From a virus (taxonomy: Duplodnaviria; Heunggongvirae; Uroviricota; Caudoviricetes): DNA of 42,961 bases. The DNA is taken from the IMG/VR virus record IMGVR_UViG_2531839476_000018; one strand, written 5' to 3'. This document shows positions 1 to 42,961 of the stretch, piece by piece. Position 1 is the stretch's first letter; every line of letters starts with the position of its first letter. The notes beneath the pieces are model-generated. The model made no database searches. It was not told the origin of the DNA and saw only the letters and a list, made by a program, of their open reading frames with translations. A program made the position numbers and the translations under genes.

Positions 1-507
1 ATGCAAAAATCTATTGGGCAACCAAGTGATAACGAAGAAACTGAGTTCGAGGAAGTTGAGGAAGAGCTAAGTAACGAGATTATCCAAAACCCAGATGCAT
101 TTACTCGCGTGCTTGACCGACCAGAAATTCAGGAAATTGTTGTTGCTCATCACGCGTTCCAGGGACCACTTCCACCACCTTATCTTCTTCGTGGGTATCA
201 GGATATTTTACCTGATGCCCCTGAACGGATTTTCCAGTTGACGGAAAAAGAGTTTGCTCACCGCCAAAAAATGGAAGAAAAGGCCCTTGATGGAGCGATA
301 AACCGGGATAAACGAGGACAATTTTATGGTCTTGCTGCGACTCTTTTTACAGTAACATGTGCAACCATATTGGGGCTAACTGGTCACGAAATTTTGGCAG
401 GAACAGTGATCGGTACTGTTGTCGCAGTTGCGGGTATTTTTGTTCTTCGAAAAAAACCAAGCACTAAAAGCAAATCTAAAAACGACAATACCCACGATGA
501 AGAATAG
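1..507 (+). CDS. Hypothetical protein with acidic N-terminus, proline-rich motif (GPLPPPYLLRGY) and C-terminal hydrophobic segment; cargo gene distal to the invertase. The window starts at its ATG, so the 5' end may be incomplete.
   Basis: 168-aa ORF followed directly by a hairpin plus T-tract; composition resembles DUF2335-type phage-associated membrane proteins (from memory, not verified). Confidence 0.45.
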   Translation: MQKSIGQPSDNEETEFEEVEEELSNEIIQNPDAFTRVLDRPEIQEIVVAHHAFQGPLPPPYLLRGYQDILPDAPERIFQLTEKEFAHRQKMEEKALDGAINRDKRGQFYGLAATLFTVTCATILGLTGHEILAGTVIGTVVAVAGIFVLRKKPSTKSKSKNDNTHDEE

Positions 508-529
508 CCCGCGCTGCGGGCTTTTTTAT
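507..529 (+). terminator. Intrinsic terminator after ORF 1-507
   Basis: Stem gcccgc / gcgggc (507-521) with 3-nt loop, followed by TTTTTTAT (522-529). Confidence 0.55.
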
Positions 530-599
530 GGACGAAACAAAAGTCAGTGCTACACTCATTGACGCCACATTGAGGTGGCTTATAGATGGAAATCTCACA

Positions 600-800
600 A
601 TGAAAAAAGCATTTGCTGCCTGTTCGTTTTGTTGTCTCTGGTGGCTTCAACTCAGGCCTCTGCTGGTCGTTGTCAGCACGACAGCGATACTGCCGCTGAC
701 GGCTCCCGCTGCGGTGGGCGCTCTGCGGATTCCCGCCCGGGAGGTGGTGGCATTCGTTAAAAACAAGATCGCAAAAACGGCCTGTGACATGCCACATTAA
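600..800 (+). CDS. Possible small hydrophobic ORF (66 aa, MKKAFAACSFCCLWW...); weak ribosome-binding site
   Basis: ATG at 600 in a GC-rich segment between the terminator and the invertase 3' end; no recognisable homology. Confidence 0.2.
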   Translation: MKKAFAACSFCCLWWLQLRPLLVVVSTTAILPLTAPAAVGALRIPAREVVAFVKNKIAKTACDMPH

Positions 801-848
801 CTTTTCAGTCAACCGTAGCACGTTCTTGTATACGACGTGTCTGCGGTT

Positions 849-1405
849 TTATATAACCCTAGCTGGAAACCTCTTATACAAAGTCGATTCGCCAACATCA
901 TAGATGATCGCCACCTTCTGGCGAGGAATTCCTGCTGCAATTAATCGTCCGGCCTGTGTGCCCATTGTTCTGGTGTAAGTTTGGGACGACGTCCACCAAT
1001 TCGTCCCTGTACGCGAGCAGCTTCCAGTCCAGCTTTTGTTCGTTCAACAATCAGTTCTCGTTCCATTTCAGCCAGGGCACCCATCACATGAAAGAAAAAG
1101 CGCCCCATTGGGGTACTGGTATCAATTGAATCCGTCAGACTACGAAAGTTGATGCCTCGTTCGCGCAACTCCTCCACCAGCACGACAAGATGCCGCATAC
1201 TGCGCCCCAGTCGGTCAAGTTTCCAGACCACCAGCGTATCACCTGCCGATAATGTCCCGAGCAGTTTTTTCAGTCCCGGCCTTTCGGACTTTGTACCGCT
1301 TATCTTGTCTTCAAAAATCAGCTCGCATCCTGCACAGTTCAGCGCATTACGTTGTAGATCTGTGTTCTGGTCATTTGTTGACACACGTACATAGCCAATA
1401 AGCAT
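849..1405 (-). pseudogene. pin: Serine DNA invertase (Hin/Gin/Pin/Cin family), apparently frameshifted between the catalytic domain and the C-terminal HTH domain
   Basis: N-terminus MLIGYVRVSTNDQNTDLQ...VVWKLDRLGRS is the hallmark resolvase/invertase catalytic domain with a GGAG ribosome-binding site 8 nt upstream of ATG 1405. The ORF stops at 941 (…RPKLTPEQWAHRPDD*), while the HTH (QAGRLIAAGIPRQKVAIIYDVGESTLYKRFPARVI*) is encoded in another frame, 849-955. The frames are consistent with 2 extra bases in a CACA repeat near 956-959. Confidence 0.8.
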
Positions 1406-1459
1406 GGTAGATCTCCCTGACAAAAGCAGGAATGATGCCATTTGCTCGTTATTTCTGCA

Positions 1460-1485
1460 TTTTCATAAACGTTGGTTTGGGAGAA
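1460..1485. repeat. hix/gix-like recombination site (right boundary of invertible segment)
   Basis: tttcataaacgttggtttgggagaa; its reverse complement ttctcccaaaccaacgtttatgaaa matches the site at 3395-3419 in 21 of 25 positions and resembles hix half-sites (TTATCAAAAACC). Confidence 0.7.
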
Positions 1486-1863
1486 GCGGCAACGAGGAAC
1501 GTCGGAACGGATACCGGGCAAGTACCAGATATGAGTAGTTTTACAACGGGGCACTCTGGAGTAGCAGACTGGCCGAATCCTAAATCTGGATGGAGTAAGG
1601 GGCCGGATGGGGTAATTACACAATGGGGCATTTTCGGTTTCCCCGTTGGACAGACAGGGACGAATGTTGTTTTCCCGCTACCTTTCCCCGCGCGGGTCGA
1701 ATCAATTACACTGACAATGGCAGATATCCAGGAGTCTCTGCTTTCTCCAACAACCATGCCTGCTTATGGAGTTAACTCAACTGGTACTTCAAGAACGGGT
1801 TTTACAGCCCGTATGTCAGGCGCCGGTGGGTTTAATCTTTGCTATATAGCGAAAGGGAGATAA
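1486..1863 (+). CDS. Alternative tail-fibre C-terminal variable domain (silent in this orientation; would be fused to the constant N-terminus after inversion)
   Basis: The reading frame continues through the crossover site encoding ...VGLGE|AATRNV..., the same LGLGE junction as the expressed fibre at 3395-3420; no start codon or ribosome-binding site of its own. Confidence 0.6.
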   Translation, partial: AATRNVGTDTGQVPDMSSFTTGHSGVADWPNPKSGWSKGPDGVITQWGIFGFPVGQTGTNVVFPLPFPARVESITLTMADIQESLLSPTTMPAYGVNSTGTSRTGFTARMSGAGGFNLCYIAKGR

Positions 1864-1867
1864 CAGA

Positions 1868-2311
1868 ATGAATAAAGTTAAAAGTGTTTACAGCCCGTCC
1901 GAAAATGCAATCTACAACGCAGCGCTATATGAAAGTTATATCAAGGAGGGGACATGGCCGCAGGATGGTATTGAAATCAGCGATGAGGATGCTGTCAGAT
2001 TTAATGGGGGAAATAAGCCAACAGGAAAAATGCTGGGAATGGTTTCAGGGGCCCTTGCATGGGTTGATGAGCCGCCGCTTTCACCAGAACAGAAAATATC
2101 AGATGCAGAAAACATGAAAGCCACATTTCGTGCAAAAGCTGACAGTGAAATATCCTGGCGTCAGGATGCTGTTGATGCTGATATCGCAACTGATGAAGAA
2201 ACTTCAACTCTCACCGAATGGAAGAAATACCGTGTGCTGCTGATGCGTGTTGATACGTCAACAGCACCCGATATTGAATGGCCTACGCCTCCGGCAGTTC
2301 AGGCCAGATGA
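1868..2311 (+). CDS. Tail-fibre assembly protein (alternative copy, for the silent fibre variant)
   Basis: 147 aa ending ...DIEWPTPPAVQAR, the typical Tfa C-terminal motif; immediately follows the alternative fibre exon. Confidence 0.7.
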   Translation: MNKVKSVYSPSENAIYNAALYESYIKEGTWPQDGIEISDEDAVRFNGGNKPTGKMLGMVSGALAWVDEPPLSPEQKISDAENMKATFRAKADSEISWRQDAVDADIATDEETSTLTEWKKYRVLLMRVDTSTAPDIEWPTPPAVQAR

Positions 2312-2876
2312 CATCCGGCGCGGTGCTGGTATCTGTTGCCGTCACCGCGTCAATGTAATCCAGCACGGCGTTAAGTCGGGTTGTTTCTGCCTGAGTCAGT
2401 TTCCGTCCGGTCTGTAATTTCAGCTGAATCAGACTGATGGAAGCCATTGCAGCATCAATCAGTGACTGGCGCTGTGCTTCTGCCGCTTCTACTGCGGCGC
2501 TATGCTGTGCCTCGGTATCCGTCACCCATTTCTCACCATCCCATTTATCGTATGGCGTTAACGGTGAAAGCGTGACATAACCGTCTTTGATGGCACCGAT
2601 ATAATCCACTGTAACAGCTGCGCCATTTTCAGTTGAGTAAACGGTCTCATTGCGATGGTCTTCTTCATGGCTCCATCCCTTACCCGTAAATACTGCCACT
2701 TTTCCCGGAATGTTTTCGCCCGGGTCAATACCAGTGGAACAGGCGGGTATACTTACGCCAGTATTAATATATTCATCAGACCAGCCGGTATATTCATACG
2801 TTACTGCATTATAATAAAAACAACGCATATCGCCCGGCACTGTAGCCAGCCCATTTTCATCAAAAACAGGTTTCAT
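2283..2876 (-). CDS. Tail-fibre assembly protein (expressed orientation)
   Basis: 197 aa ending ...TSTAPDVIWPELPEA; directly downstream of the fibre gene; 3' end convergent with and overlapping the alternative tfa. Confidence 0.75.
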   Translation of the reverse strand: MKPVFDENGLATVPGDMRCFYYNAVTYEYTGWSDEYINTGVSIPACSTGIDPGENIPGKVAVFTGKGWSHEEDHRNETVYSTENGAAVTVDYIGAIKDGYVTLSPLTPYDKWDGEKWVTDTEAQHSAAVEAAEAQRQSLIDAAMASISLIQLKLQTGRKLTQAETTRLNAVLDYIDAVTATDTSTAPDVIWPELPEA

Positions 2877-3763
2877 TATTTAGCCCTCACCAGAAAGTTA
2901 AATGCAATATTTCGTGGACGGGTTTCTGTACCTACATTTTCACTAATTTCACCATAACGTTTAACACTACGAGAGCTAATAGCTCGTAGTGAGGAAGGCA
3001 CATTAAGACCGGGTTCGTCCGTTTTAACTATTCCCCCGTCACCATATGTAGCCAGTATTCCTGGGTTTACTCCTTCCCGTGCACTTCCTGCGGCAAGCCC
3101 GTCCCCCGTCCACAATTCCATATTGTGTGCATGATCCATAATTGTGTGTGATTGCCCTGAAAGTAGGGTACGTCCGACATCAATCCCGCGCCCGTCATCC
3201 CAGATACGAATGAAATCACCGCGTGCGTCAGGTAATGCCAGAGCCGGAAACACTTTCGCCAGCACAGGGTAATCAGTGGCAGAGAATTTCGCGCCGTTGA
3301 ACTTCAAAAACACCATACCGGACCAGCTATCGATTACGGTATCTGGCATTGCAGCGGACGGCCAGAAGAACGGAACGCCAATAGCTGGAGCTCCTTCTCC
3401 CAAACCAAGGTTTTCGAGAGCCGTTTCCACCGTGCCATCCGATTTGATATCACCAAACGGATTCTTGCGGCTCAGGTATTCAACAGCAAACCCCGATCCC
3501 AGCAATTCAACAAAACCGGGCAGATCACCATTATCAAGCACATCCCGTTGCGTTTTGTCACTTACAAACTGGGCCAGAGCTGCAGCAATAAAGCTGGCCT
3601 GCCGAATAACCTTATTGACTTGCGCACTGGATGCTTTCCCTGCTGTAAATCCGGATAAAAGCGCAGGCAACGCTTCCCATTCCTCCTGCGACATAACATT
3701 GGCATTCCGATCAGTTGCAAACGCTTTAAAGTCATTTTTCGCCATCAGAGTAATACTCCCCAT
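2876..3763 (-). CDS. Tail fibre protein (constant N-terminus about residues 1-115, variable C-terminus inside the invertible segment)
   Basis: 295-aa ORF with a fibre-like N-terminus ([30 protein letters not shown]...); the crossover site lies in-frame at the codons for LENLGLGEG. Confidence 0.75.
3395..3420. repeat. hix/gix-like recombination site (left boundary, inside the tail-fibre gene)
   Basis: ttctcccaaaccaaggttttcgagag, inverted relative to the site at 1460-1485. Confidence 0.7.
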
Positions 3764-3767
3764 GCCC

Positions 3768-4424
3768 CTACATCAAAACCACTGATGAATTCGTTATCCA
3801 TATCAAAACCAAAAATTTTGAACCTTCCGATGGGGTTTCCACCGAAGGTGTTTCAATGCCACCCGCCCATACCCCGGCGGCTTTTACTGTGAGATACCCC
3901 TGTTTAATTGCCGCAATTAACTCACGCGATACATCTGAAATATCAGTATCAGGAAAGACCCAGACCGATATCGTCATGTCATGGTTATCGACTATCTGCA
4001 TTCGCAGTCCGGATCCTGCTGTTGCCGCGTCAAGAATTGCCGGAAGCGAATCATTCCGTCCGTCCCAGTTATTAATCGCAATCTTCGCTTTAAGGATGAC
4101 ACGATAAGTTTCATCGCTGAGGTACATGTATCCGGAATCAGGATCGTATGGCCCCTGCCATACACCCTGATCATATCCAAGCCCGTCGGTATCCCAGCTG
4201 AAATAGACACCTGAAATAGGCTGGCTGACAACACGGCTACGTCCGATCCACAATCCCAGAATGTCAAGTTGCACACCAACCGCAGAGTCAATATCAAATG
4301 CAGTAATCAGCCCTCTGGTGGCAGCCGCAACATCAATAAGCGGCCGGGTCATCAGATCAACATGTGCAAGAAATTTAGGTTTGGTGGCGTGGTAGTTTGT
4401 GATTAGTTCGGTGTATTTGCTCAT
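3768..4424 (-). CDS. Baseplate / tail protein (P2 gpI-like or Mu gp48-like position)
   Basis: 218-aa ORF between the baseplate J-like gene and the tail fibre; the family call rests on position and recollection. Confidence 0.5.
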
Positions 4425-17668: not shown

Positions 17669-18175
17669 TTAAATCTTCCAGGAAATTTCTGCATTGCCGT
17701 CAGCATCACCGGCACCTGTGAATTCAGCGTTGGTCAGCACCACGTTTTTGCCACTGACTGACGTGGACATGAATCCACCCAGCGGCACTTTGATGGATTC
17801 ATCAGTGGAGACGACAACGTATACCGGGTCGCCTTTTTTGATGGTGCTGGCATCAAAATCAGAACCGAGATTAACGGTCACGTAGCCACGCTTCATGGCG
17901 TCGCCCGGGAAGTTCTTGCCACTCCCCACCTGGCGAACCATGTCCGGCTGCGAAGTGGTCGGATAAGGGCGCACGTAGATCCCCTTCACCTTGTCTGCGG
18001 TATCACCATCTGCCAGCGGCACGAAAAAACCGTCATCATCGTATTTACCAGCCAGCCCATAAGCAGCGAAGGCGTTATCGGATTTAAGGACTACCGGTTC
18101 GACGGTTAAGTCCTGCGGGCGAGAGACAGCCCCGGCAATGCCAACAGGCATCCGGTACAGAAATACATTATTCAT
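17669..18175 (-). CDS. Capsid-associated protein (decoration or cement-like)
   Basis: 168-aa ORF between the scaffold and major capsid genes. Confidence 0.4.
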   Translation of the reverse strand: MNNVFLYRMPVGIAGAVSRPQDLTVEPVVLKSDNAFAAYGLAGKYDDDGFFVPLADGDTADKVKGIYVRPYPTTSQPDMVRQVGSGKNFPGDAMKRGYVTVNLGSDFDASTIKKGDPVYVVVSTDESIKVPLGGFMSTSVSGKNVVLTNAEFTGAGDADGNAEISWKI

Positions 18176-32429: not shown

Positions 32430-33731
32430 ATGCCAGACGTTCACGCACAACTTTCTCCATCATCAGCGCATCGATGGATGCGCTGCCCAGGAAGTCTGGC
32501 GCTGGAGGCCACACAACCGGATAAAGAAACAACTTTTGCAATCGAGGGCACTACAGCGCACGCGCTTGCTGAAAAAGTTCTACGAAACAGGCAAAGCCAC
32601 CCGGAACACTACGCCGGATGCAATGTTTCTATGTTTCTCGGCTCATACCCCCTTCGCGAAAATCCTGATGATACATCTGGCCCACAGGTGGATGATGAAA
32701 TGGTCGAAGCCGTCGGCCGGTATGTTGATACGGTCTGGACTCTTGCACAGAATAATGAACTATTGGTTGAACAACGTGTTGATTTCTCACATATAACGGG
32801 TGTGGAAGAATCTTTCGGAACTGCCGACGGCATAATCATCGCTGGTAACGAATTACAAATCCACGACCTGAAATATGGCAAAGGCGTCCGCATTGATGCA
32901 GAACAAAATGAGCAACTACAACTGTATGCTCTGGGTGCTCTCGAACAATTCAGCATGCTGTATGACTTTGAGACTGTAAGATTATTTATTCACCAGCCAA
33001 GGCTCAACCACGTTTCAGAATGGTCGTTAACCGTACAGGAACTTCAGTCTTTCGGTGAACGGGCACTGGAGGCCGCAACCAGTGCGATCCTTGTTCTCAA
33101 TATTGCTGAATGCGAAGGCATTGAGACACTACCGCTGGAAAACTTCATACCTGGAGAAAAACAGTGCCGCTTCTGTAAAGCAAAAGCTATTTGCACTGCC
33201 CAGAAAATGCAGCATTTACAAACAGCGGCCAGCGATTTTGAAGATCTGACAAAGCCTGTCAGCGAAATAATCACCAATGCCAGCGCACGTGTACCTCTGT
33301 TAACCATTGAGCAGCTTGCAGAGATCTATAGCCAGGCCGACTTTATTGAATCCTGGCTAAAGGCAGTACGGGACCGGGTTCACGATGAACTCAATGCCGG
33401 ACATCCGGTACCGGGGTTTAAACTGGTAACAGGAAAACAAGGTAACCGGGCCTGGAGTGATGAAGAGGCAGCTCGCGCACTTCTGAAGGACCAGTTCAGG
33501 TACAAAACTGAAGAAGTATTCGACTTTAAACTTATTAGTCCCACAAAAGCCGAAAAACTTATCAAAAAGGCCAGTCCGCGCCGTTGGTCAAAAGTCGAGG
33601 CACTGATAACACGAGCTGATGGAAAACCCACCGTCGTTCCCGAGTCAGACCCACGCCCCGCACTCAATATCAACCCTGTAAATGATTTCGACGACGTATC
33701 CGACGATACGCTAACCGCAGACCTCATCTGA
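32430..33731 (+). CDS. PD-(D/E)XK-type nuclease (DUF2800 / Cas4-like) with a C-terminal Cys cluster
   Basis: N-terminal [15 protein letters not shown] signature and a C-terminal [10 protein letters not shown] cysteine cluster, as recalled for DUF2800 phage exonucleases. Confidence 0.65.
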
Positions 33732-33746
33732 TTTAAGGAAATACCC

Positions 33747-34295
33747 ATGAAACTGAAGCTGAACAATGTTCGTCTGGCCTTCCCGTCTCTGTTTGAAGCT
33801 AAAACTGTAAACGGCGAAGGCGATCCGCGTTTCTCCGCAGTATTTTTAATGTCTCCCAAACACCCACAACTGGAAGAAATCCGTAAAGCTATGAAGCAGG
33901 TAGCGAAGGAAAAATGGGGAGAGAAGTGGGAGCCCATTTATAACCAGCTGGAGAAAAAACTCAATCTGTGCCTGCATGATGGTGATGAAAAAGCAGAGTA
34001 TGAAGGCTTCCCCGGTAATTTCTTCCTGAATGCTGCTAACAAAGCGCGCCCAGCTGTTCTTGATCGCGATCGTTCGCCACTTATTCAGGCTGACGGACGT
34101 CCCTATGCAGGGTGCTATGTAAACGCCGTTATCGATATCTGGGCACAGGACAATAATTTCGGTAAACGCATTAATGCCTCACTCGGCGGAGTCCAGTTCC
34201 TGCGAGACGGCGATGCATTCGCTGGCGGCGGAGTGGCAAGCGCTGACGATTTCGACGATATCAGCGAAGGTGCTGATGCTGAAGCACTAATTTAA
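33747..34295 (+). CDS. DUF2815-type phage protein (putative ssDNA-binding partner of the DUF2800 nuclease)
   Basis: N-terminus MKLKLNNVRLAFPSLFE typical of DUF2815 as recalled; directly follows the nuclease. Confidence 0.6.
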   Translation: MKLKLNNVRLAFPSLFEAKTVNGEGDPRFSAVFLMSPKHPQLEEIRKAMKQVAKEKWGEKWEPIYNQLEKKLNLCLHDGDEKAEYEGFPGNFFLNAANKARPAVLDRDRSPLIQADGRPYAGCYVNAVIDIWAQDNNFGKRINASLGGVQFLRDGDAFAGGGVASADDFDDISEGADAEALI

Positions 34296-34310
34296 CCCTA
34301 CTTCATAGAC

Positions 34311-34329
34311 GCCCGGTTAAACACCGGGC
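34311..34329. other. Hairpin between convergent genes (gcccgg-ttaaaca-ccgggc)
   Basis: Perfect 6-bp stem between the 3' ends of the DUF2815 gene and AT-rich island 1; no strong T-tract on either side. Confidence 0.3.
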
Positions 34330-34347
34330 TACTGATTAGGCGTATAA

Positions 34348-34542
34348 TCACTCAGGAATCTTAATCTTTCTCAATTCTTTATTTAGTTCACAGATCTTTT
34401 TCTTAGACGGGAAAGTATCATACATCCAAAAACCAACAGTCTCTAAAACTATTATCATAACCATATACACAAGATAATTTAAAAGGCCTTCATTTTGCCC
34501 TATGGAAATAATGCAGATAATAGAAAAAAGGGTAAACAGCAC
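34348..34542 (-). CDS. AT-rich island 1, distal ORF (membrane protein fragment); possibly the frameshifted C-terminal part of one gene
   Basis: 64-aa hydrophobic ORF overlapping the upstream ORF in another frame across an A6/T6 homopolymer (34524-34529). Confidence 0.4.
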   Translation of the reverse strand: MLFTLFSIICIISIGQNEGLLNYLVYMVMIIVLETVGFWMYDTFPSKKKICELNKELRKIKIPE

Positions 34543-34976
34543 AAAACACAGAAAGGAAAACAGACGACTAATAATAAATAAAAAACCTGAAAAATCAACA
34601 TTAATAAAAACACTCCGTTATCTTTCTCTATATAATTCTGAAGCTTAATCAACTGATTTATATACTGTCTTTTTTCTAATCTATTGCAAATGTAAATAAC
34701 ATCTCTTCGGTTATAAGATGATTGCAATTTCAGCGCATCACGAATAATTTTATCATTTATTCTTTTTTCTATGGCACTCTTATCCTCCTCATCCAGATAA
34801 CGTTCATACTTAACTAAATATAAAATTAACTTCTTAACATATTTAGGCTCTTTATACTTATAATTAAAAATGATCTTTCTTATCCAGACTCCCATAACAA
34901 TCAAACATGAAAAAATATATCCAGCTATTTTCTCCAGATGCTCTGTATGGTCAATCAAGTATTGGATCATATGCAT
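34500..34976 (-). CDS. AT-rich island 1, proximal ORF: membrane protein of unknown function (cargo, antisense to the early operon)
   Basis: 158 aa with an N-terminal TM helix, a charged middle and a hydrophobic C-terminus; flanking intergenic DNA and the gene are visibly more AT-rich than neighbouring genes. Confidence 0.5.
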   Translation of the reverse strand: MHMIQYLIDHTEHLEKIAGYIFSCLIVMGVWIRKIIFNYKYKEPKYVKKLILYLVKYERYLDEEDKSAIEKRINDKIIRDALKLQSSYNRRDVIYICNRLEKRQYINQLIKLQNYIEKDNGVFLLMLIFQVFYLLLVVCFPFCVLCCLPFFLLSALFP

Positions 34977-35022
34977 AATTAATCTTTTAATCAGTTAATA
35001 GAATAAAAACCAAGGTAAACAC

Positions 35023-37086
35023 ATGTCCAATATACTATGGGGCGACCTGGAAACCTATTGCGAAATCCCTATTACGAACGGTACCCATGCGTATGCCGAA
35101 GGCGTTGAAGTGATGCTTTTCGCATGGGCTATCAACGACGGGCCAGTAAACGTGTGGGATATCACTGCCGGTGGTGGTATTCCACACGGCTTATACGAAG
35201 CAATCGCAGACCCTGAAACCCTGCTTTATTTCCATAACTCTCACTTCGACCGCACCGTTCTGCGTTATGCAATGCCGCGCCTGGCACCGCCAGTCGAACG
35301 TTGGCGCGACACAATGGTGCAGGCGCTGGCGCACGGCCTCCCGGGGTCTCTGGGGGAACTCTGCGAAATACTCGGCGTCCCGCAAGACAAAGCGAAGGAC
35401 AAAGAAGGTAAAGCGCTGATCCAGCTGTTCTGTAAGCCACGCCCGAAAAACAGCAAACTGCGTCGGGCCACCAGTAAAACCCACCCGGAAGAATGGCGGC
35501 GCTTTGTTGCTTACGCCGGACTGGATATCGAGGCAATGCGCGAAGTCTATAAACGTCTGCCGAAGTGGAATTATCAGGGGACAGAACTGGCGCTCTGGCA
35601 TCGTGATCAGCAGATCAACGACCGGGGCGTCTGCATGGACATTCAACTCGCGCGCGCTGCGATCGAAGCGGTAGACCAGGAGCAAAAGCGCCTGGCAAAG
35701 CGTACACAGGAAATGACTGATGGCGAAGTGCAGGCAGCCACACAACGAGACGCGTTGATTAAGCACATTGTTGAATCCTACGGTGTGGAGCTACCAGACA
35801 TGCAACGCAGTACTCTGGAACGTCGTATTGCCGACCCCGATTTACCATCTGCCGTGAAAGAACTGCTGGCTATCCGCCTGCAGGCCAGTACTACCAGCAC
35901 CAGTAAATACAAGGCACTGATGAAAGGCGTAAGCCACGACGGGCGCTTACGCGGTACGCTACAGTTCTGCGGGGCGTCACGTACCGGTCGTTGGGCCGGA
36001 CGGCTATTCCAGCCCCAGAACCTTCCCCGCCCTTCACTAAAACAGGAACAAATAGACGAAGGCATCGAAGCACTGAAAGCCGGATGTGCAGACCTGCTGT
36101 TTGACAATATCATGGAACTAACCAGTTCAGCGTTACGTGGCTGCATTATCGCGCCAACAGGCAAAAAGCTGGTGGTAAGTGACTTGTCGAACATTGAAGG
36201 CCGTATGCTGGCATGGCTGGCGGGAGAAGAATGGAAACTGAATGCATTCAGAGAGTACGACGCCGGAACGGGTCCGGACTTATATAAACTGGCGTATGCA
36301 AAAGCTTTCGATATTGCACCAGATGATGTTGATAAACACATGCGTCAGATCGGTAAAGTCATGGAACTCGGTCTGGGTTATGGTGGTGGTGTGTCGGCCT
36401 TCATCACTTTTGCACTGGTTTACGGTCTCGATCTCGACGAGCTGGCGAACGCCGCACTACCAAACATTCCCCGCGATGTTATCCGCGAGGCGAAAAGCTG
36501 GTACGACGAATCGGTTAAACGCAAGTCAACCTACGGGCTTTCTGAACGGGTATTTATCGCCTGCGACTCACTTAAACGTCTCTGGCGCCGGGCGCATCCC
36601 GCGACCTGTGATTTCTGGTACGAACTGGAGCGCACCGTCCGCACTGCAATCGCCACACCGCAAAAAACATTGTATTGCGGTTATCTTAAAATCCGCCGCG
36701 ATGGCGCGTGGCTGCGCATACAGCTACCATCCGGACGCGCTGTATGCTACCCGTCTCCGGTTATCGAAAAAGGGAATATCACCTACATGGGGGTTAACTC
36801 TTATTCGCGTAAATGGCAACGACTCAAAACCTACGGCGGAAAGCTGGTGGAGAACATCACCCAGGCGGCCGCCCGCGACATTCTGGCCGGAAACATGCCG
36901 CTTATCGAAGATGCCGGTTACAGCATTGTGCTGACGGTACACGACGAGGTGATCACCGAAGCACCTGACACAGAAGATTTCAACGATAAAGCGCTTTCCG
37001 CGCTTCTCTCCACTGACCCCGAATGGGCGCCCGATATCCCACTGAACGCTGGCGGTTTTGAGGCGTACCACTACAAAAAAGATTGA
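35023..37086 (+). CDS. Family A DNA polymerase (phage type, with N-terminal 3'-5' exonuclease-like domain)
   Basis: 687 aa; polymerase motifs recognisable: motif A-like [15 protein letters not shown], motif B-like [16 protein letters not shown], motif C LTVHDEV. Confidence 0.85.
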
Positions 37087-37150
37087 TATAACTCACCTTA
37101 TCGAGCTATGGCGACATGCTGAATTCGAGTAAATTAAAGGAACAATACTT

Positions 37151-37912
37151 ATGCAGGAACTAACTGAAATGCCGATCACCTATCCATACCCGAGAGAAAC
37201 TTTTCCTGACTTTTTGAGGGAGTGTGGGTTCACCAATTTTTCCCACGAACAGCGTGAGACTTGTGACTGCTATCGTTTAACGAATGGCGTAATTGTTAAC
37301 CTTTACACCACCCGGACCATTCAGTTTCAAGGTAACCCTCAAGAACGTCCCAATGTTGAAACTGCAATAATGACCCATTTAGGAACGCCGCCCACGGCAA
37401 CACCACTAGCCGTAGAACAGCCATCTGAGCTCCCCAAAAAGATATTCATTGTTCACGGCCATGACCATACTGCAAAGGAGCAACTTGAGCTAATCCTTCA
37501 TAAACTTGGATTACCAGACCATTTCATTTTGCAGAATACGGGAGGGACTGGACTCACCATTATTGAAGAGCTTGAACGTGAAATTGGGCAAGGACAAACT
37601 GCTACCCGTTTCGGGATTGTTCTTTTGACACCTGATGATATGGGATACTCAAAGCGCGCCGGTGAAGCAGAAATCCAACCCCGCGCAAGACAGAACGTTG
37701 TACTCGAGATGGGTATGCTTCTTTCGTCCTTAGGGCGCAGCAATGTAGCAATCCTTCAGAAACAGCACCTAGAACAGCCTTCTGATGCTAACGGGATTTT
37801 GTATCTGAATTTCAACGACCATGTACGTGAAACAGTTCCTCGTCTAGTGCAACGGTTACAAAATTCTGGTTTCGAATTTACACAAGCTCAAATAGCTAAC
37901 GCTTCCTCGTAA
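37151..37912 (+). CDS. Hypothetical protein with a C-terminal TIR-like / nucleoside-deoxyribosyltransferase-like motif set; candidate defence effector
   Basis: 253 aa; residues about 100-250 contain KIFIVHGHDHTAKEQLELIL … GIVLLTPDD … NVVLEMGML, resembling TIR-like (COG4271-type) domains as recalled; unknown N-terminal 95 aa; AAGGA ribosome-binding site; own terminator. Confidence 0.4.
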   Translation: MQELTEMPITYPYPRETFPDFLRECGFTNFSHEQRETCDCYRLTNGVIVNLYTTRTIQFQGNPQERPNVETAIMTHLGTPPTATPLAVEQPSELPKKIFIVHGHDHTAKEQLELILHKLGLPDHFILQNTGGTGLTIIEELEREIGQGQTATRFGIVLLTPDDMGYSKRAGEAEIQPRARQNVVLEMGMLLSSLGRSNVAILQKQHLEQPSDANGILYLNFNDHVRETVPRLVQRLQNSGFEFTQAQIANASS

Positions 37913-37935
37913 TTACCCCTTATTGTTGATTACAA

Positions 37936-37960
37936 CCCTGCATCGCGGGGTTTTTTATTT
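37936..37960 (+). terminator. Intrinsic terminator after the TIR-like gene
   Basis: ccctgc-atc-gcgggg stem (one G-U pair) followed by TTTTTTATTT. Confidence 0.55.
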
Positions 37961-37975
37961 GGGAATAAAAACCCT

Positions 37976-38110
37976 ATGTCATTTAAATACCGGGACAGTC
38001 CGCTTTATTACCGGACTGTGCGGGAGGCTTTGCACCTTGAACAGTCCGGCGGGTACGACCGGGCGATGCAGGTCTGGGCCAAAGCGAACGTCGGTTTGAT
38101 TTTTGTCTGA
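37976..38110 (+). CDS. Possible small ORF (44 aa)
   Basis: ATG at 37976, stop TGA at 38108-38110; weak ribosome-binding site; not in the ORF track (under 60 aa). Confidence 0.2.
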   Translation: MSFKYRDSPLYYRTVREALHLEQSGGYDRAMQVWAKANVGLIFV

Positions 38111-38146
38111 TGCAGAACATGCGCGAAAAGCGTAAGGAGGTGGACG

Positions 38147-38341
38147 ATGTCTAATATCGATAATAAGGGTTGGGGGTTCCCCGCTCTGTCAAAAAAAGCA
38201 CATTTCTTTAATTCGGGGGAAGCCATATCACTATGCGGAAAATGGATGTTCATAGGTATCAGGATTGATGAATGGCATGACCATCCTGAGAACTGCGCTA
38301 TCTGCATGAAGAAACGCAAAAAGCAGGAAGGCGAAAGCTAA
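38147..38341 (+). CDS. Small Cys-rich protein
   Basis: 64 aa with C…C…CAIC; stop overlaps the VRR-NUC start. Confidence 0.4.
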   Translation: MSNIDNKGWGFPALSKKAHFFNSGEAISLCGKWMFIGIRIDEWHDHPENCAICMKKRKKQEGES

Positions 38342-38628
38342 TGGCCTATGAACGTGAAAACCTAATCGAAAAGCACCTCGTCGCTGAAGTAAAAAAGGCT
38401 GGCGGGGTTGCCTTTAAGTTCGTATCCCCCGGTCGCCGCTCGGTACCAGATCGCATTGTTCTGCTACCCGGCGGTCGTATCATTTTCGTTGAATGTAAAT
38501 CCCCCGGCAAGCCACCACGGCCTGACCAGTTGCGCGAACACGGACGGTTGCGCGCGCTGGGCTTTACCGTAGTGGTGCTGGATAGCAAAAATCTGGAGGC
38601 CATTATTTTAAGCCGCAATAAAGGATAA
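38341..38628 (+). CDS. VRR-NUC domain nuclease
   Basis: 95 aa with PDRIVLLPGGRIIFVECK (PD…(D/E)xK core) as recalled for VRR-NUC. Confidence 0.7.
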   Translation: MAYERENLIEKHLVAEVKKAGGVAFKFVSPGRRSVPDRIVLLPGGRIIFVECKSPGKPPRPDQLREHGRLRALGFTVVVLDSKNLEAIILSRNKG

Positions 38629-38640
38629 AAGACTTATGCT

Positions 38641-39273
38641 TTAATCCGTATTTTTAACACGTATTTCGAAACACCCTTTTAATTTAGCTATTTCCTTTTT
38701 AGAGGACATGATTGTGAATCTCATCCCTTTTAAATCATTAACAAATTCAAATTTTGCGCTATTTGACTCACAATCACCAACAACAAAACCACTACCAAAT
38801 GAATTGAGCAACACTTTAGTATTACTACCATCTACCATATAATATTCGTTATTTTTAAATGCAGTAACCTTCCCGAATGTATAGCTCAATATCAACAACG
38901 TTATCACCCCTAAAGGAAAAGCTGACTTTAGGATTTTTAAATCGATATAATAAAATACGTTCTTATACTCTGCAAGCCTCCCAAATTTTCTAATGCTCTC
39001 CATATGATGTTCGTGTCTCTTACTATGGATTGGCATGGACACCACATTGTGATAATTCAACAAAAGCATAGCAAATAATAAAATATCCTGAACACTCATC
39101 ACAGAAGTTTCGGAGAAATAACCAAAAGGCCAATGAAATCCTATTATACAAATATTAGCCATTAGCATAACAACTATAAATACAATAAATGGAACATAAT
39201 ATTTCCCTTTCAAATCAAACATCAACGCCGCATATAAGGCGCCGAGAAATAAAAAACTAAAAACAAAAGCCAC
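38641..39273 (-). CDS. AT-rich island 2, distal ORF: polytopic membrane protein of unknown function (cargo, antisense)
   Basis: 210 aa with several TM helices followed by a soluble C-terminal domain; AT-rich. Confidence 0.5.
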   Translation of the reverse strand: MAFVFSFLFLGALYAALMFDLKGKYYVPFIVFIVVMLMANICIIGFHWPFGYFSETSVMSVQDILLFAMLLLNYHNVVSMPIHSKRHEHHMESIRKFGRLAEYKNVFYYIDLKILKSAFPLGVITLLILSYTFGKVTAFKNNEYYMVDGSNTKVLLNSFGSGFVVGDCESNSAKFEFVNDLKGMRFTIMSSKKEIAKLKGCFEIRVKNTD

Positions 39274-39437
39274 ACAGCCGAATACAATAGCGTATTTAAG
39301 TCTATTTTAATAAAAAGGTCTGGATAGCCATAATACGATGCAACACCTTTCTGAAAAGAATATGCCATCGCATAAGCTAACGCTGAAAACATAGTTAATA
39401 AAGAAACTTGCTTTGTAAATATTTTCGCCAGGGGCAT
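39222..39437 (-). CDS. AT-rich island 2, proximal ORF (membrane protein fragment); possibly the frameshifted N-terminal part of one gene
   Basis: 71-aa hydrophobic ORF overlapping the 210-aa ORF in another frame across A/T homopolymer runs (39247-39269). Confidence 0.4.
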   Translation of the reverse strand: MPLAKIFTKQVSLLTMFSALAYAMAYSFQKGVASYYGYPDLFIKIDLNTLLYSAVWLLFLVFYFSAPYMRR

Positions 39438-39500
39438 ACCCGCCTCCGTTAGTTATATATATAGAGAGAGAAGTGACCATATTCTACCATAGGTGTATTA

Positions 39501-40895
39501 ATGAATAGCATATTCCACCCCAGAGTTTATCAAAACCTCATAATCAATCACCAAACTAACATTCTGCGCGGCAACATCTGGGCGGGTATGGGAATGGGTA
39601 AAACCGTGGCAACGCTCACTGCGCTGGAAGATCTCTTTATGGCAGGGGCAGAAACATGCCCCGCACTGGTCCTCGCGCCGCTGCGCGTGGCTGCCAGCAC
39701 ATGGCCGGATGAAGCACTGAAGTGGGGACATTTGCGCAATATCGAGGTGCAGCCAATTATTGGTAATGCCAAAGCGCGCTCTATGGCGCTGACGAACAGC
39801 AACGCAAGCGTGTTCACCATCAACTACGATAACCTTGTCTGGCTGATTGAAGAATTGGGAGAACGATGGCCGTTCGGTACTGTCATTCCAGATGAAAGCA
39901 CCCGGCTAAAATCCTTCCGGCTGCGCGGTGGTGGTAAGCGCGCGGCGGCGCTGGGCAAAGTGGCGCATAAGTATGTCCGGCGCTGGATAAATCTCACCGG
40001 TACGCCAGCACCGAACGGCCTGGTAGATTTGTGGGGACAATCGTGGTTTGTGGACCAGGGGCAACGTCTCGGGCGCACTTACGGCGCGTTTACCTCACGC
40101 TGGTTCAACTCGATACAGTTTCCGGGGCAGAGCTGGACCAAACTGGAGCCTTTTGCTCACTCACAGGGTGAAATACAGCGAGCGTTAGCCGATGTAACCC
40201 TCTCGCTGGATGCGGCCGACTGGTTCGATATCAAAGACCCCATCCATAACGTAATCCGCGTGGATATGCCACCGAAGGCCCGTCAGCAGTATCGTGAAAT
40301 GGAAAAGGAAATGTTCCTCGAGCTGAATGGCGAAGGCATCGAAGCACCGAACGCCGCGGCAAAGACACTGAAGTGTCTGCAAATCGCCAGCGGCGCAGTA
40401 TACACAGATGACACCGGAAGTTGGTCAGAACTGCATGACACCAAACTACAGGCGCTGGACAGCATACTGACCGAAGCAGCTGGCGCACCTGTGCTGGTTG
40501 CTTATCACTGGAAACACGATCTTGAACGCTTGCTTAAAGCATTCCCTCGCGGTCGTCACCTCGACCAGGATCCACAGACACTGCGCGACTGGAATTCCGG
40601 AAAGATTCCTGTTCTCTTTGCACACCCAGCCAGCGCGGGCCACGGCCTGAACATGCAGGACGGCGGAAATATACTGGTATTTTTCTCACACTGGTGGGAC
40701 CTGGAGCAATATCAGCAAATTATTGAACGTATCGGCCCCACCAGGCAGATACAGGCCGGACACAATCGTCCGGTATTTATTCACCACATTATTGCTGCCG
40801 ACACTATGGATGAAATGGTGATGGAGCGGCGCAACTCAAAACGAACAGTGCAGGACATCCTGCTCGATGCCATGAAAAAGAGAGGTATAGCATGA
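39501..40895 (+). CDS. SNF2-family helicase / ATPase
   Basis: 464 aa; Walker A GMGMGKT, DEXx-like VIPDEST, and C-terminal helicase motifs. Confidence 0.8.
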   Translation: MNSIFHPRVYQNLIINHQTNILRGNIWAGMGMGKTVATLTALEDLFMAGAETCPALVLAPLRVAASTWPDEALKWGHLRNIEVQPIIGNAKARSMALTNSNASVFTINYDNLVWLIEELGERWPFGTVIPDESTRLKSFRLRGGGKRAAALGKVAHKYVRRWINLTGTPAPNGLVDLWGQSWFVDQGQRLGRTYGAFTSRWFNSIQFPGQSWTKLEPFAHSQGEIQRALADVTLSLDAADWFDIKDPIHNVIRVDMPPKARQQYREMEKEMFLELNGEGIEAPNAAAKTLKCLQIASGAVYTDDTGSWSELHDTKLQALDSILTEAAGAPVLVAYHWKHDLERLLKAFPRGRHLDQDPQTLRDWNSGKIPVLFAHPASAGHGLNMQDGGNILVFFSHWWDLEQYQQIIERIGPTRQIQAGHNRPVFIHHIIAADTMDEMVMERRNSKRTVQDILLDAMKKRGIA

Positions 40896-41092
40896 GCGAG
40901 AAACCCGACGATTTACTCACCCCGGATGAAGTATGCCAAAAGTTAGGTATTACACAGAAAACGCTATGTGAGTGGAATATTAAGCATCGTCATCGGGCTA
41001 TCCTGGCACCAATTCGTTTCAGTGCAAAAGTAGTTCGTTATGAGCGCCGAAATATCGACGCTTTTATTCAAAAATGTCGCAGCCAGTATTAA
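40892..41092 (+). CDS. Excisionase / AlpA-like HTH regulator
   Basis: 66 aa with HTH LLTPDEVCQKLGITQKTL; adjacent to and convergent with the integrase. Confidence 0.6.
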   Translation: MSEKPDDLLTPDEVCQKLGITQKTLCEWNIKHRHRAILAPIRFSAKVVRYERRNIDAFIQKCRSQY

Positions 41093-42492
41093 CCTCGCCG
41101 CCGTAGCAATGCCACCTGCGCAAGTATGCTCCGCTCGTGAGCCTCGAAAGCTTCGCGCTTCAACGCAATCTCTTCCTGTAAAATCTCATCAGAAAAGTCG
41201 TAATGTTCTGCCATCGGGTCATCTGACTTGCTGGAGTGGTGAAGGCAAAGGAGGCTGATTTCCCTTCGGTCTGAGCGGGAATAGCCTCTTTCCTTCATCA
41301 AGGCAATAACATTGCTCTTAAGGAATTTACGGCACATCGTATTAAATGCACCGTCTTTCCCTTTAACAGTCCCATCATGTTTTATTCCTTTTACAGCCCC
41401 GTCCGGGCTGTATGTTTTCACCAGCTTATCCAGTGATCGTTTTGAAAATGGCTGCATTGGATCACGTGGCTGCAAAAATACATAATCCCTGTTGCACTCA
41501 GGAACTGAATCACGCCAGGCTTTCTGCTCGTCGATAATCCGCCGGATCTCAGGGGTTATCGGCAGGCGGAAAGCCTTTTGTGTTTTCATAGCCCCTCGCA
41601 TGCCGATAACCCCTTCCGGATAAACAATTTCACCAGCCTCCTCGTGAACGTAGTCCCAGCGCAGGTTATGGACATTAATCGGACGAACACCAGTGATGAT
41701 CATGAAGCGAACAGCATTCTTCTGGTGTACAGAGGTGCAGGCAGCAACATTGAGCCAGAGTCGGGCGATTGATTCAATATCGGTAAAAAGCCGTGTGGGG
41801 GTAGGTTTCTGTACGCGGGAGGAAACATAATCATCTGGCAGACTGGCGGCAACATTGCGGCCGTTGCAAAGAGTAGGTGCGCAGAACTTCCAGAACCGAC
41901 GGAGCTCGGCAAACAACTCCAGGGCGTTATTGTTCGAGCGAGTAGCGATCCACTCGTCCAGCACTTCCACCAGCCGATTGTATGTTACGTCGCTGAACAC
42001 CTCGCGCTCGCCGAACGTTGCTTTAATCCGGTCGATACGCACCCCGTAGGTTGTGAAACTGTCCGGGCTCAGCTTCTGCCGGGCGACTTTGGCTTTGAGG
42101 TCATCCCGGTACATTTCCAGCGCTGCATGTACGGACTCTGCCCGCAGGCCACCGTCAGCCATACCTAGCGCTTTTTCGCGCGCCAGCTGGATAGCGAGCT
42201 CCGGCCACTCGCCGAGCTTTTTACCTTTGAGGCCCATCTTTTTTGGAAACTCGGCGTAAAATGTAACCTTACCGGCTTTGCTGAAATCGATACGGAGATA
42301 GTTCTCTTTTTCGTATTTGGAACGGCGAGCCACGCCGGAAGCAGCGAGGATGATTTTGGCGGCAGCAACACAGATTTTCATGTGTGCGCTAGTATAGGGG
42401 GGTTTACAGGCGTCCCATTTTTCAGAAGCGGCTAAAACATCGTCATTATTGGGGCTATCCGGATTATGTGTTACAGTGCGCGGCATTCTCAA
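41089..42492 (-). CDS. int: Tyrosine site-specific integrase
   Basis: 467 aa; C-terminal catalytic region with …LCLHHSSK… and …AEHYDF… (candidate catalytic Tyr); located at the prophage end beside host yfhL. Confidence 0.8.
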   Translation of the reverse strand: MRMPRTVTHNPDSPNNDDVLAASEKWDACKPPYTSAHMKICVAAAKIILAASGVARRSKYEKENYLRIDFSKAGKVTFYAEFPKKMGLKGKKLGEWPELAIQLAREKALGMADGGLRAESVHAALEMYRDDLKAKVARQKLSPDSFTTYGVRIDRIKATFGEREVFSDVTYNRLVEVLDEWIATRSNNNALELFAELRRFWKFCAPTLCNGRNVAASLPDDYVSSRVQKPTPTRLFTDIESIARLWLNVAACTSVHQKNAVRFMIITGVRPINVHNLRWDYVHEEAGEIVYPEGVIGMRGAMKTQKAFRLPITPEIRRIIDEQKAWRDSVPECNRDYVFLQPRDPMQPFSKRSLDKLVKTYSPDGAVKGIKHDGTVKGKDGAFNTMCRKFLKSNVIALMKERGYSRSDRREISLLCLHHSSKSDDPMAEHYDFSDEILQEEIALKREAFEAHERSILAQVALLRRRG

Positions 42493-42691
42493 TCCTTATC
42501 TGCGTAGGCGCAGAAAACAAGCTCACACATACAAGTCTTTTCTACGGGACAAAATGCAATGTGTTGCGGTTTAGTGTTGCTGGACTGAGTTTATCAAGGT
42601 TAAATACACTGGATCAACATACAGTAAGTTAATGACAGTAAAGCATACAAACTCGATACAACTTACTGATTTTAAAATGATTTAACGGTAA

Positions 42692-42961
<270 letters not shown>

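Follow-up and report, generated by a model that had tools for sequence, protein, structure and literature searches.

The two overlapping minus-strand open reading frames (ORFs) located between a VRR-NUC nuclease gene and an SNF2-family helicase gene of this phage sequence are the halves of one frameshifted allele, neither two genes nor a recoding device. By the window we mean the whole stretch of 42,961 nucleotides that was analysed; since it finds its matches in E. coli genomes, it is part of an E. coli prophage. Our overall account, to which we would give a probability of about 0.8, is that the split gene is a frameshifted accessory gene of the moron type, lying antisense within the early/replication operon of a temperate E. 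coli phage. The allele found in the window is a pseudogene or, possibly, a base-calling error. The features on which the argument depends are as follows:

34348-34976, minus strand: membrane-protein gene of island 1, 209 aa when intact, with an A6-to-A5 contraction at 34606-34610; GC 0.289
38341-38628, plus strand: VRR-NUC nuclease gene, which bounds the cargo slot on the left
38641-39437, minus strand: membrane-protein gene of island 2, 265 aa, inner membrane; frameshifted in the window, a 798-nt coding sequence in relatives
38641-39273, minus strand: ORF for the C-terminal fragment, 210 aa from a GTG or 193 aa from an ATG
39222-39437, minus strand: ORF for the N-terminal fragment, 71 aa from an ATG, with residues 1-59 native and the tail out of frame
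39251-39256: second run of six, 2 nt from the frameshift site, hit by other slip alleles elsewhere
39259-39263: frameshift site, A5 on the plus strand (T5 on the gene strand), a six-base run in the relatives checked
39443-39447, minus strand: Shine-Dalgarno sequence GGAGG, 5 nt upstream of the ATG at 39437
39454-39471, gene strand: microsatellite (TC)4(TA)5, presumably within the 5' leader
39481-39489, minus strand: candidate extended -10 promoter element TGGTAGAAT, read by eye, which would serve the antisense gene
39501-40895, plus strand: SNF2-family helicase gene, which bounds the cargo slot on the right

A first-pass annotation had described this place as an AT-rich block between the VRR-NUC and SNF2 genes that encodes a polytopic membrane protein as two overlapping ORFs on the opposite strand, and its description of the sequence was borne out. 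The antisense block (38629-39500) has a GC content of 0.33 against 0.53-0.54 in the flanking genes; values across the block range from 0.32 to 0.35, and the gene itself stands at 0.327, to be compared with 0.528 for VRR-NUC, 0.540 for SNF2 and 0.495 for the entire window. Both ORFs are present in the ORF list and overlap by 52 nt. The frame change had been placed within 39247-39269, and that is where it lies: the window has A5 at 39259-39263 and its relatives have A6. The native part of the 71-aa ORF comprises the first transmembrane helix (TM1), a conserved YGYPxxFIxIDL loop and the beginning of TM2, while the downstream ORF encodes the remainder of TM2, TM3 to TM5 and a C-terminal domain. 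Hydrophobic segments in the repaired product, together with five long helices in a confident structural model, agree with a polytopic membrane protein.

In four annotated E. coli genomes, the same block is a single minus-strand coding sequence of 798 nt for 265 aa. Alignment of the window with these relatives revealed only one length difference inside the gene, namely the loss of one T from the gene-strand sequence GGCTTTTGTTTTTTAG, and restoring this T gives a protein identical to WP_001127515.1 across all 265 residues. A 91-nt query spanning the junction matched nine complete genomes, each with a one-base gap, and A5 was seen in none of the nine. Two further relatives (L002 and L003) carry T6 in the alignment, as do seven of seven IMG/VR prophage contigs, where the frame is open. 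All seven homologue clusters at 90% identity are of 260-265 aa, and among the cluster members well over 200 contigs carry a 265-aa form. A comparison of the two allele groups in E. coli gives a dN/dS ratio of 0.28, which indicates purifying selection on the intact gene. Homologues are thus single ORFs, and none was found that would correspond to either half as a gene of its own. The locus is best annotated as a pseudogene of WP_001127515.1, neither as a gene pair nor as a site of recoding. There is nothing unusual about the split: a prophage gene that is dispensable has been put out of frame by one base in a homopolymer.

Whether the base is missing from the organism or only from its assembly is a separate matter. 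Four A6/T6 runs of the window are contracted relative to its closest complete relative: one at 3811, where a DUF2612 baseplate gene has its C-terminus altered, one between genes at 18175, and one in each island, at 34606 for island 1 and at 39259 for island 2. None of these contractions occurs in complete E. coli genomes (0/500, 0/338, 0/67 and 0/9, respectively). Such a set of private contractions, one of them changing the end of a baseplate protein, resembles homopolymer miscalling, in which case the gene would be intact in the source organism; further A-run deletions, again private, are seen in L008, the Logan assembly of a strain related to it. On the other hand, 44 A6/T6 runs remain intact in the window, and we therefore rejected a systematic homopolymer collapse. 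Moreover, the Logan assemblies of two separate SRA runs, SRR124116 and SRR125865, also carry A5 at 39259. Their contigs equal the window across 36944-42961 and differ from it by 23 substitutions across 32714-36943. A common A5 in contigs that differ to this degree points to a related but distinct prophage with the same inherited allele. The exact frameshifted products were also called in Logan assemblies, the 71-aa form in one and the 193-aa form with its ATG start in two. Overall, the island-2 frameshift is probably a true mutation, and we would allow a sequencing or assembly error roughly one chance in five.

The first-pass annotation had also raised the idea that slippage-prone tracts are used deliberately here, and this idea found no support, as the island-2 ORF is uninterrupted in all of the relatives checked and the island-1 gene is intact in 67 of 67 genomes. 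One form of it would be that -1 ribosomal frameshifting or transcriptional slippage bridges the split, so that full-length protein is still made. The required frame is indeed -1; the T5 allele yields G_UUU_UUA, one base away from the heptamer U_UUU_UUA, a slip at this site would give a near-native protein with one Phe-to-Leu change, and an 8-bp hairpin (39245-39222) begins 12 nt downstream. As a criterion, we applied a site of the form X_XXY_YYZ or an A/T run of at least nine, plus a stimulatory structure 5-9 nt downstream. By this measure, the heptamer (G_TTT_TTA in DNA) is wrong in its first position, the run has five bases, and the hairpin stands off beyond the usual spacer. A five-base run is too short for efficient polymerase slippage, which counts against bridging as well. 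The imperfect heptamer is present only in the mutant allele, the intact alleles require no recoding, and a two-ORF arrangement is not conserved, the relatives having a single ORF in the four annotated genomes, in nine of nine complete genomes and in seven of seven IMG/VR loci. We consider bridging of the split to be very improbable.

Another form would be phase variation by slipped strands, in which the neighbouring T-runs would turn a costly membrane protein on and off reversibly. The only runs of six or more in the intact 798-nt gene are two adjacent T6, at nt 175 and 183, and together they encode the LFFSFL of the Phe-rich second transmembrane helix. Slip alleles have arisen independently at both of them: a -1 in run 1 in the window and in two assemblies (L008 and L009), a -1 in run 2 in L008, and a putative +1 in run 2, with which a 74-aa product (P0026) is consistent. 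However, six-base runs are short for a contingency locus, and among these relatives the tract does not vary: L002, L003, the nine complete genomes and the seven IMG/VR loci all have T6. All 17 complete genomes that carry the gene appear intact, nine of them by the junction search, two by alignment and six by annotation only. The runs themselves follow from TTT codons, the gene being AT-rich and the helix Phe-rich; four of ten family members lack them at this place. Nonsense and non-run frameshift alleles are seen too, as plain decay predicts. At least four disrupted alleles besides that of the window occur in E. coli assemblies; apart from the slip alleles just listed, there are a 77-aa product consistent with a stop at codon 78, a 48-aa product, and an allele with a frameshift near codon 97. 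Such a mix is typical of a dispensable gene in decay, the runs being the places where it breaks most easily. We found no evidence of reversible switching of the T6 gene among the relatives compared, and the switch seems to us improbable.

A longer tract, and one that truly varies, was found in a sister allele of 236 aa that occupies the same slot. Its A8 form encodes the intact protein in 10 complete genomes, including O55:H7 CB9615, and its A9 form leads to a 195-aa truncation in 12 complete genomes, including O26:H11 97-3250 and the probiotic strain M-17. This polymorphism speaks for a switch, but the A9 genomes may share descent from one event. In the A9 form, the conserved C-terminal motif is still legible in the +1 frame; as nine-A runs can support polymerase slippage, this form may not be fully null.

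Island 2 had been likened to another split gene, island 1, the pair being taken as two islands of the same design in one early operon. The halves of island 1 are the minus-strand ORFs 34500-34976 and 34348-34542 of what is, when intact, WP_000551017.1, and the A6 is kept in 67 of the 67 complete genomes carrying this gene. At the DNA level, the parallel stands, as both genes are split by an A6-to-A5 contraction. At the protein level, it fails: BLASTP gave no similarity between the two island proteins (best E = 5.4), and we rejected their homology. What looks like a shared design is one type of mishap that befell two AT-rich genes; runs abound in membrane-protein genes of such composition, as TTT is a Phe codon.

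The proposal that the place is a hotspot for membrane-protein cargo fared better. A megablast search with 38300-39800 against 5,426 complete E. coli genomes found the flanks in 134 and the whole block in only 17, and at least five different cargoes occupy the space between near-identical VRR-NUC and SNF2 genes, which share 88-93% identity around them:

Cargo a, antisense: the 265-aa gene, in 17 genomes
Cargo b, antisense: the 236-aa gene (L113, L115), matching the family profile at 1.6e-36 with about 25% identity
Cargo c, antisense: a DUF6338 membrane protein with a 47-aa ORF
Cargo d, antisense: a 108-aa ORF
Cargo e, sense: a 305-aa protein that weakly matches a TIR effector model (PADLOC PDLC00733 at 1e-6)

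By its profile match, the 236-aa cargo would be a second allele of the same family. The GC content of the cargo is below that of the flanks throughout (0.38 for the 108-aa ORF, 0.39 for the 47-aa ORF and 0.33-0.34 for the rest). In one strain, FDAARGOS_1059, the prophage adjoins yfhL and acpS. No empty VRR-NUC/SNF2 slot was seen among the relatives, and that the gene was inserted here is suggested by the replacement of one cargo by another. Being present in 17 of 134 flank-matching genomes, the gene is accessory and not a conserved core component of related phages.

Diverged members of the family lie antisense in the VRR-NUC/SNF2 slot of other phages as well (L014, L022 and L104). L104 has the sister allele with its A9 tract, whereas L014 and L022 are more distant phages with the same module, whose family members show roughly 20-35% identity. 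The order in L014 is integrase, SNF2, family gene, an 89-aa VRR-NUC-like gene, TIR and PolA, and L022 repeats it minus the TIR gene. Further members take up moron positions of lambdoid prophages, be it the nin region, the interval from Q to the holin or a place past the replication genes, and one was found in a prophage remnant. The family members examined have a GC content of 31-35% in loci of 46-53%. Potential defence genes are recurrent in this neighbourhood: the window has a TIR gene, at 37151-37912, with a PADLOC match to the candidate system PDC-S35 at 6.8e-109, other relatives have a histidine-kinase-like ATPase in its position, and L022 has a SIR2_2 gene at the position of island 1. 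The literature on PDC-S35 and on the related phages yielded nothing relevant. Overall, the early region of this phage group contains, among conserved genes, two positions that exchange AT-rich cargo, which is of modest interest; the occupants and neighbours include a PADLOC candidate TIR defence gene, a protein resembling a TIR effector and a SIR2 protein.

An exhaustive profile search returned 74 representatives of the family at E < 1e-3, mostly of 230-290 aa. The named ones, from Serratia, Yersinia, Enterobacter, Raoultella, Salmonella and E. coli, are all called hypothetical protein; the family was found only in Enterobacterales, and every context examined was a prophage. Its signature consists of an N-terminal Y..AY.FQ.G...YGYP..FI..DL, a GK..A....Y after the last helix, and a C-terminal LLNS.G...V.G.C......F....K.CF with two invariant cysteines, which are C223 and C256. 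An AlphaFold2 model built from a 48-sequence alignment (pLDDT 85.9, pTM 0.84) has helices at 2-36, 47-76, 81-99, 116-152 and 167-195, followed by a small beta-sheet (200-243) and a helix (247-264). Lys and Arg together number 2, 2 and 7 in the loops of one face and 1 and 0 in those of the opposite face; the positive-inside rule then predicts five transmembrane helices with the N-terminus in and the C-terminus out. In such a predicted topology, two conserved loops and the cysteine-bearing alpha/beta domain would be periplasmic, and C223 and C256 probably form a disulfide in that domain. The model has no structural relatives in the PDB or BFVD, and the family profile matches no PDB sequence. NCBIfam and Pfam scans of the repaired protein and of remote members, the Pfam copy used being one that lacks the PF27470 model, gave no usable match, nor did PHROGs (best E = 0.029, to a family of unknown function); PADLOC assigned 0 families to the repaired protein and four remote members, so that no defence or exclusion model recognised it. 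A tblastn search against 50,697 deposited phage genomes gave no match.

One label does exist. Precomputed Pfam tables place PF27470 'TfpB' on the N-terminal region of close and remote members, in some cases weakly, and list it for N-terminal fragments of 71-73 aa as well. Taken at face value, the label would make the protein a type IV pilin accessory factor that acts on pilus assembly and not on phage exclusion, and the general plan of TfpY-like proteins, N-terminal transmembrane helices plus a periplasmic C-terminal domain, is loosely similar (PMC11841053). TfpY-like proteins promote pilus assembly, not phage defence (PMC11841053). The members of the FimB-like TfpX/TfpY/TfpZ group (NF041437; PMC11841053) are also alike in size, at 235-265 aa, and in the globular form of the C-terminal domain, but they have three helices where the present family has five, they are pilin-adjacent whereas the present genes lay in prophages wherever their context was examined, and no profile similarity connects the two. 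As controls, we collected pilin-adjacent three-helix proteins from 80 pilin loci; these matched NF041437 (TfpX/TfpZ) at 1e-41 to 1e-58, whereas neither our protein nor three remote members did. Profile-profile comparison with the same proteins (hhalign) gave a probability of 0.5%, the family profile matched no ORF in the 80 pilin loci, and pilin genes were absent from all of the contexts examined. The 'TfpB' that we found in the literature is a PilB-like ATPase of Acinetobacter baylyi, and the pilin locus of Moraxella lacunata that we examined has no recognisable tfpB. We thus rejected membership in TfpX/Y/Z, and a role in pilus assembly appears to us very improbable.

Keeping in mind the cargo slot and its neighbours, it is tempting to suppose what the intact gene may do. 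The protein would be made in the lysogen from its own candidate promoter and would act at the envelope against incoming phages, as a superinfection-exclusion or defence-type factor; the gene would be dispensable for the phage and hence readily lost. In favour of a defence role, we counted the PDC-S35 TIR neighbour, the TIR-effector-like alternative cargo and the SIR2_2 gene of L022. An envelope factor for exclusion or defence, expressed by the lysogen, is a possibility that we would place somewhat short of an even chance. Slightly more tentative is the broader proposal that the intact gene belongs to an uncharacterised, fast-diverging family of such envelope factors that are long-term residents of the polA/VRR-NUC/SNF2 slot and of lambdoid moron positions. 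As a special case of this proposal, the paired T6 runs and the A8/A9 tract of the sister allele might serve as a crude means of turning a costly membrane protein on and off, which we regard as unlikely, at some one chance in ten. In any case, the family has neither a known function nor a structural relative, and it can reasonably be put forward as a candidate for a hitherto undescribed determinant of superinfection exclusion or defence.

Finally, three known kinds of systems invite comparison. The first comprises frameshift pseudogenes and contingency loci with homopolymer tracts: the present gene is likewise broken by one base in a homopolymer, and its sister allele varies between A8 and A9, but, unlike in contingency loci, the tract is only six bases long and invariant in complete genomes.

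The second is the morons, lysogenic-conversion or accessory units of temperate phages that were defined for lambdoid phages of the HK97/HK022 type. Like them, the present gene is a single gene within a conserved operon, opposite in orientation and distinct in base composition (0.33 versus 0.53), as are seven other family members; its neighbours are conserved in sister phages where the cargo itself is replaced, with five cargo types known. Its own ribosome-binding site is a further likeness, and its promoter is a candidate only: TGGTAGAAT was picked out by eye, a strong GGAGG was read from the sequence, a two-hexamer consensus scan gave no promoter upstream of the ATG, and a scan 3' of the stop gave no terminator. 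The number of TA units in the leader microsatellite is strain-variable in the alignment, L003 having one fewer and L004 two more than the window. The case differs from morons in that the slot was empty in none of the sister phages seen and that expression from the prophage is here a supposition.

The third comprises the inner-membrane superinfection-exclusion proteins of phages, such as HK97 gp15, P22 SieA and T4 Imm. We detected no similarity to them in sequence or fold, the architecture of five helices and a C-terminal domain being the family's own; the likeness lies in the kind of protein, as all of them are small inner-membrane proteins with a periplasm-facing part, non-essential and encoded outside the structural modules.

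Island 1, the other antisense, AT-rich membrane-protein gene of the window, is likewise interrupted by a frameshift:

34348-34976, minus strand: island-1 membrane-protein gene, frameshifted at 34606-34610

This gene is intact in all 67 complete genomes that carry it, where it encodes a protein of 209 aa with about four predicted hydrophobic segments, and it is split in the window only. A different A-run deletion within this gene, at 34524, is found in L008, a Logan (SRA) assembly of a related strain. In L014 and L022, two more distant phages sharing the module, the island-1 position is occupied by a membrane-anchored protein of 176 aa and by a SIR2_2 protein, respectively.

Two more private contractions of A6/T6 to five residues are present in the window, at 3811 and 18175, and they were absent from the complete genomes (0/500 and 0/338, respectively). 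One of them alters the C-terminal end of the DUF2612 baseplate protein, which has 218 aa in the window versus 226 aa in the relative; the other falls in a gap of 2-3 nt that separates two head genes.

Homopolymer length also varies in a second allele of the 265-aa family, which is approximately 25% identical and lies in the slot between the VRR-NUC and SNF2 genes of four compared loci:

L104:700-1287, L113:817-1527, L114:941-1528 and L115:817-1527: second allele of the 265-aa family

Here, the variation occurs among complete E. coli genomes: with an A8 tract the protein is intact at 236 aa (10 genomes, including O55:H7 CB9615), and with an A9 tract it is truncated to 195 aa (12 genomes, among them O26:H11 97-3250 and M-17).

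Two further features belong to the 265-aa gene of the window itself:

39454-39471: (TC)4(TA)5 microsatellite between the candidate promoter and ribosome-binding site of this antisense gene
39222-39245, minus strand: 8-bp hairpin within its coding sequence, beginning 12 nt past the frameshift site

The number of TA units differs by strain, being one fewer in the E. coli relative L003 and two more in L004, and the microsatellite could affect expression of the antisense gene. As for the hairpin, a comparison of the two E. coli allele groups revealed one stem pair in which both partners are replaced (C-G to T-A), and a second pair that is broken; these data are too few to call the structure conserved.

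Disrupted genes are seen elsewhere as well:

~37923-38110, plus strand: small ANR-family regulator gene, upstream of a 64-aa ORF

Annotations of the close relatives L001, L004 and L005 mark the ANR-family gene as frameshifted; it is similarly fragmented into short ORFs in the window, and is intact (222 nt) in the compared locus L103. The closest complete relative of the window, the FDAARGOS_1059 prophage (L007), is itself decaying: an IS66-family insertion lies inside a tail-fibre assembly gene, and its DUF2213 gene and a baseplate-region gene, both intact in the window, carry frameshifts.

Finally, we would like to comment on the TIR gene upstream of the slot and on the commonest alternative cargo of the slot:

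37151-37912, plus strand: TIR-domain protein, 253 aa
L005:1842-2759, plus strand: 305-aa protein, AT-rich (GC 0.34), encoded on the sense strand

Distant relative L014 retains the TIR gene at the same position, which in other relatives is taken by a histidine-kinase-like ATPase gene on the opposite strand. The 305-aa cargo gene is annotated as two ORFs in the deposited phage vB_EcoM-606R2 (L006:3342-3833 and 3952-4263) and, judging from this annotation, may be disrupted there too. Its protein weakly matches a CBASS-type TIR effector model (1e-6), and the 253-aa protein matches Pfam CAP12-PCTIR_TIR and PDC-S35 (E = 6.8e-109), which PADLOC lists as a candidate single-gene defence system.
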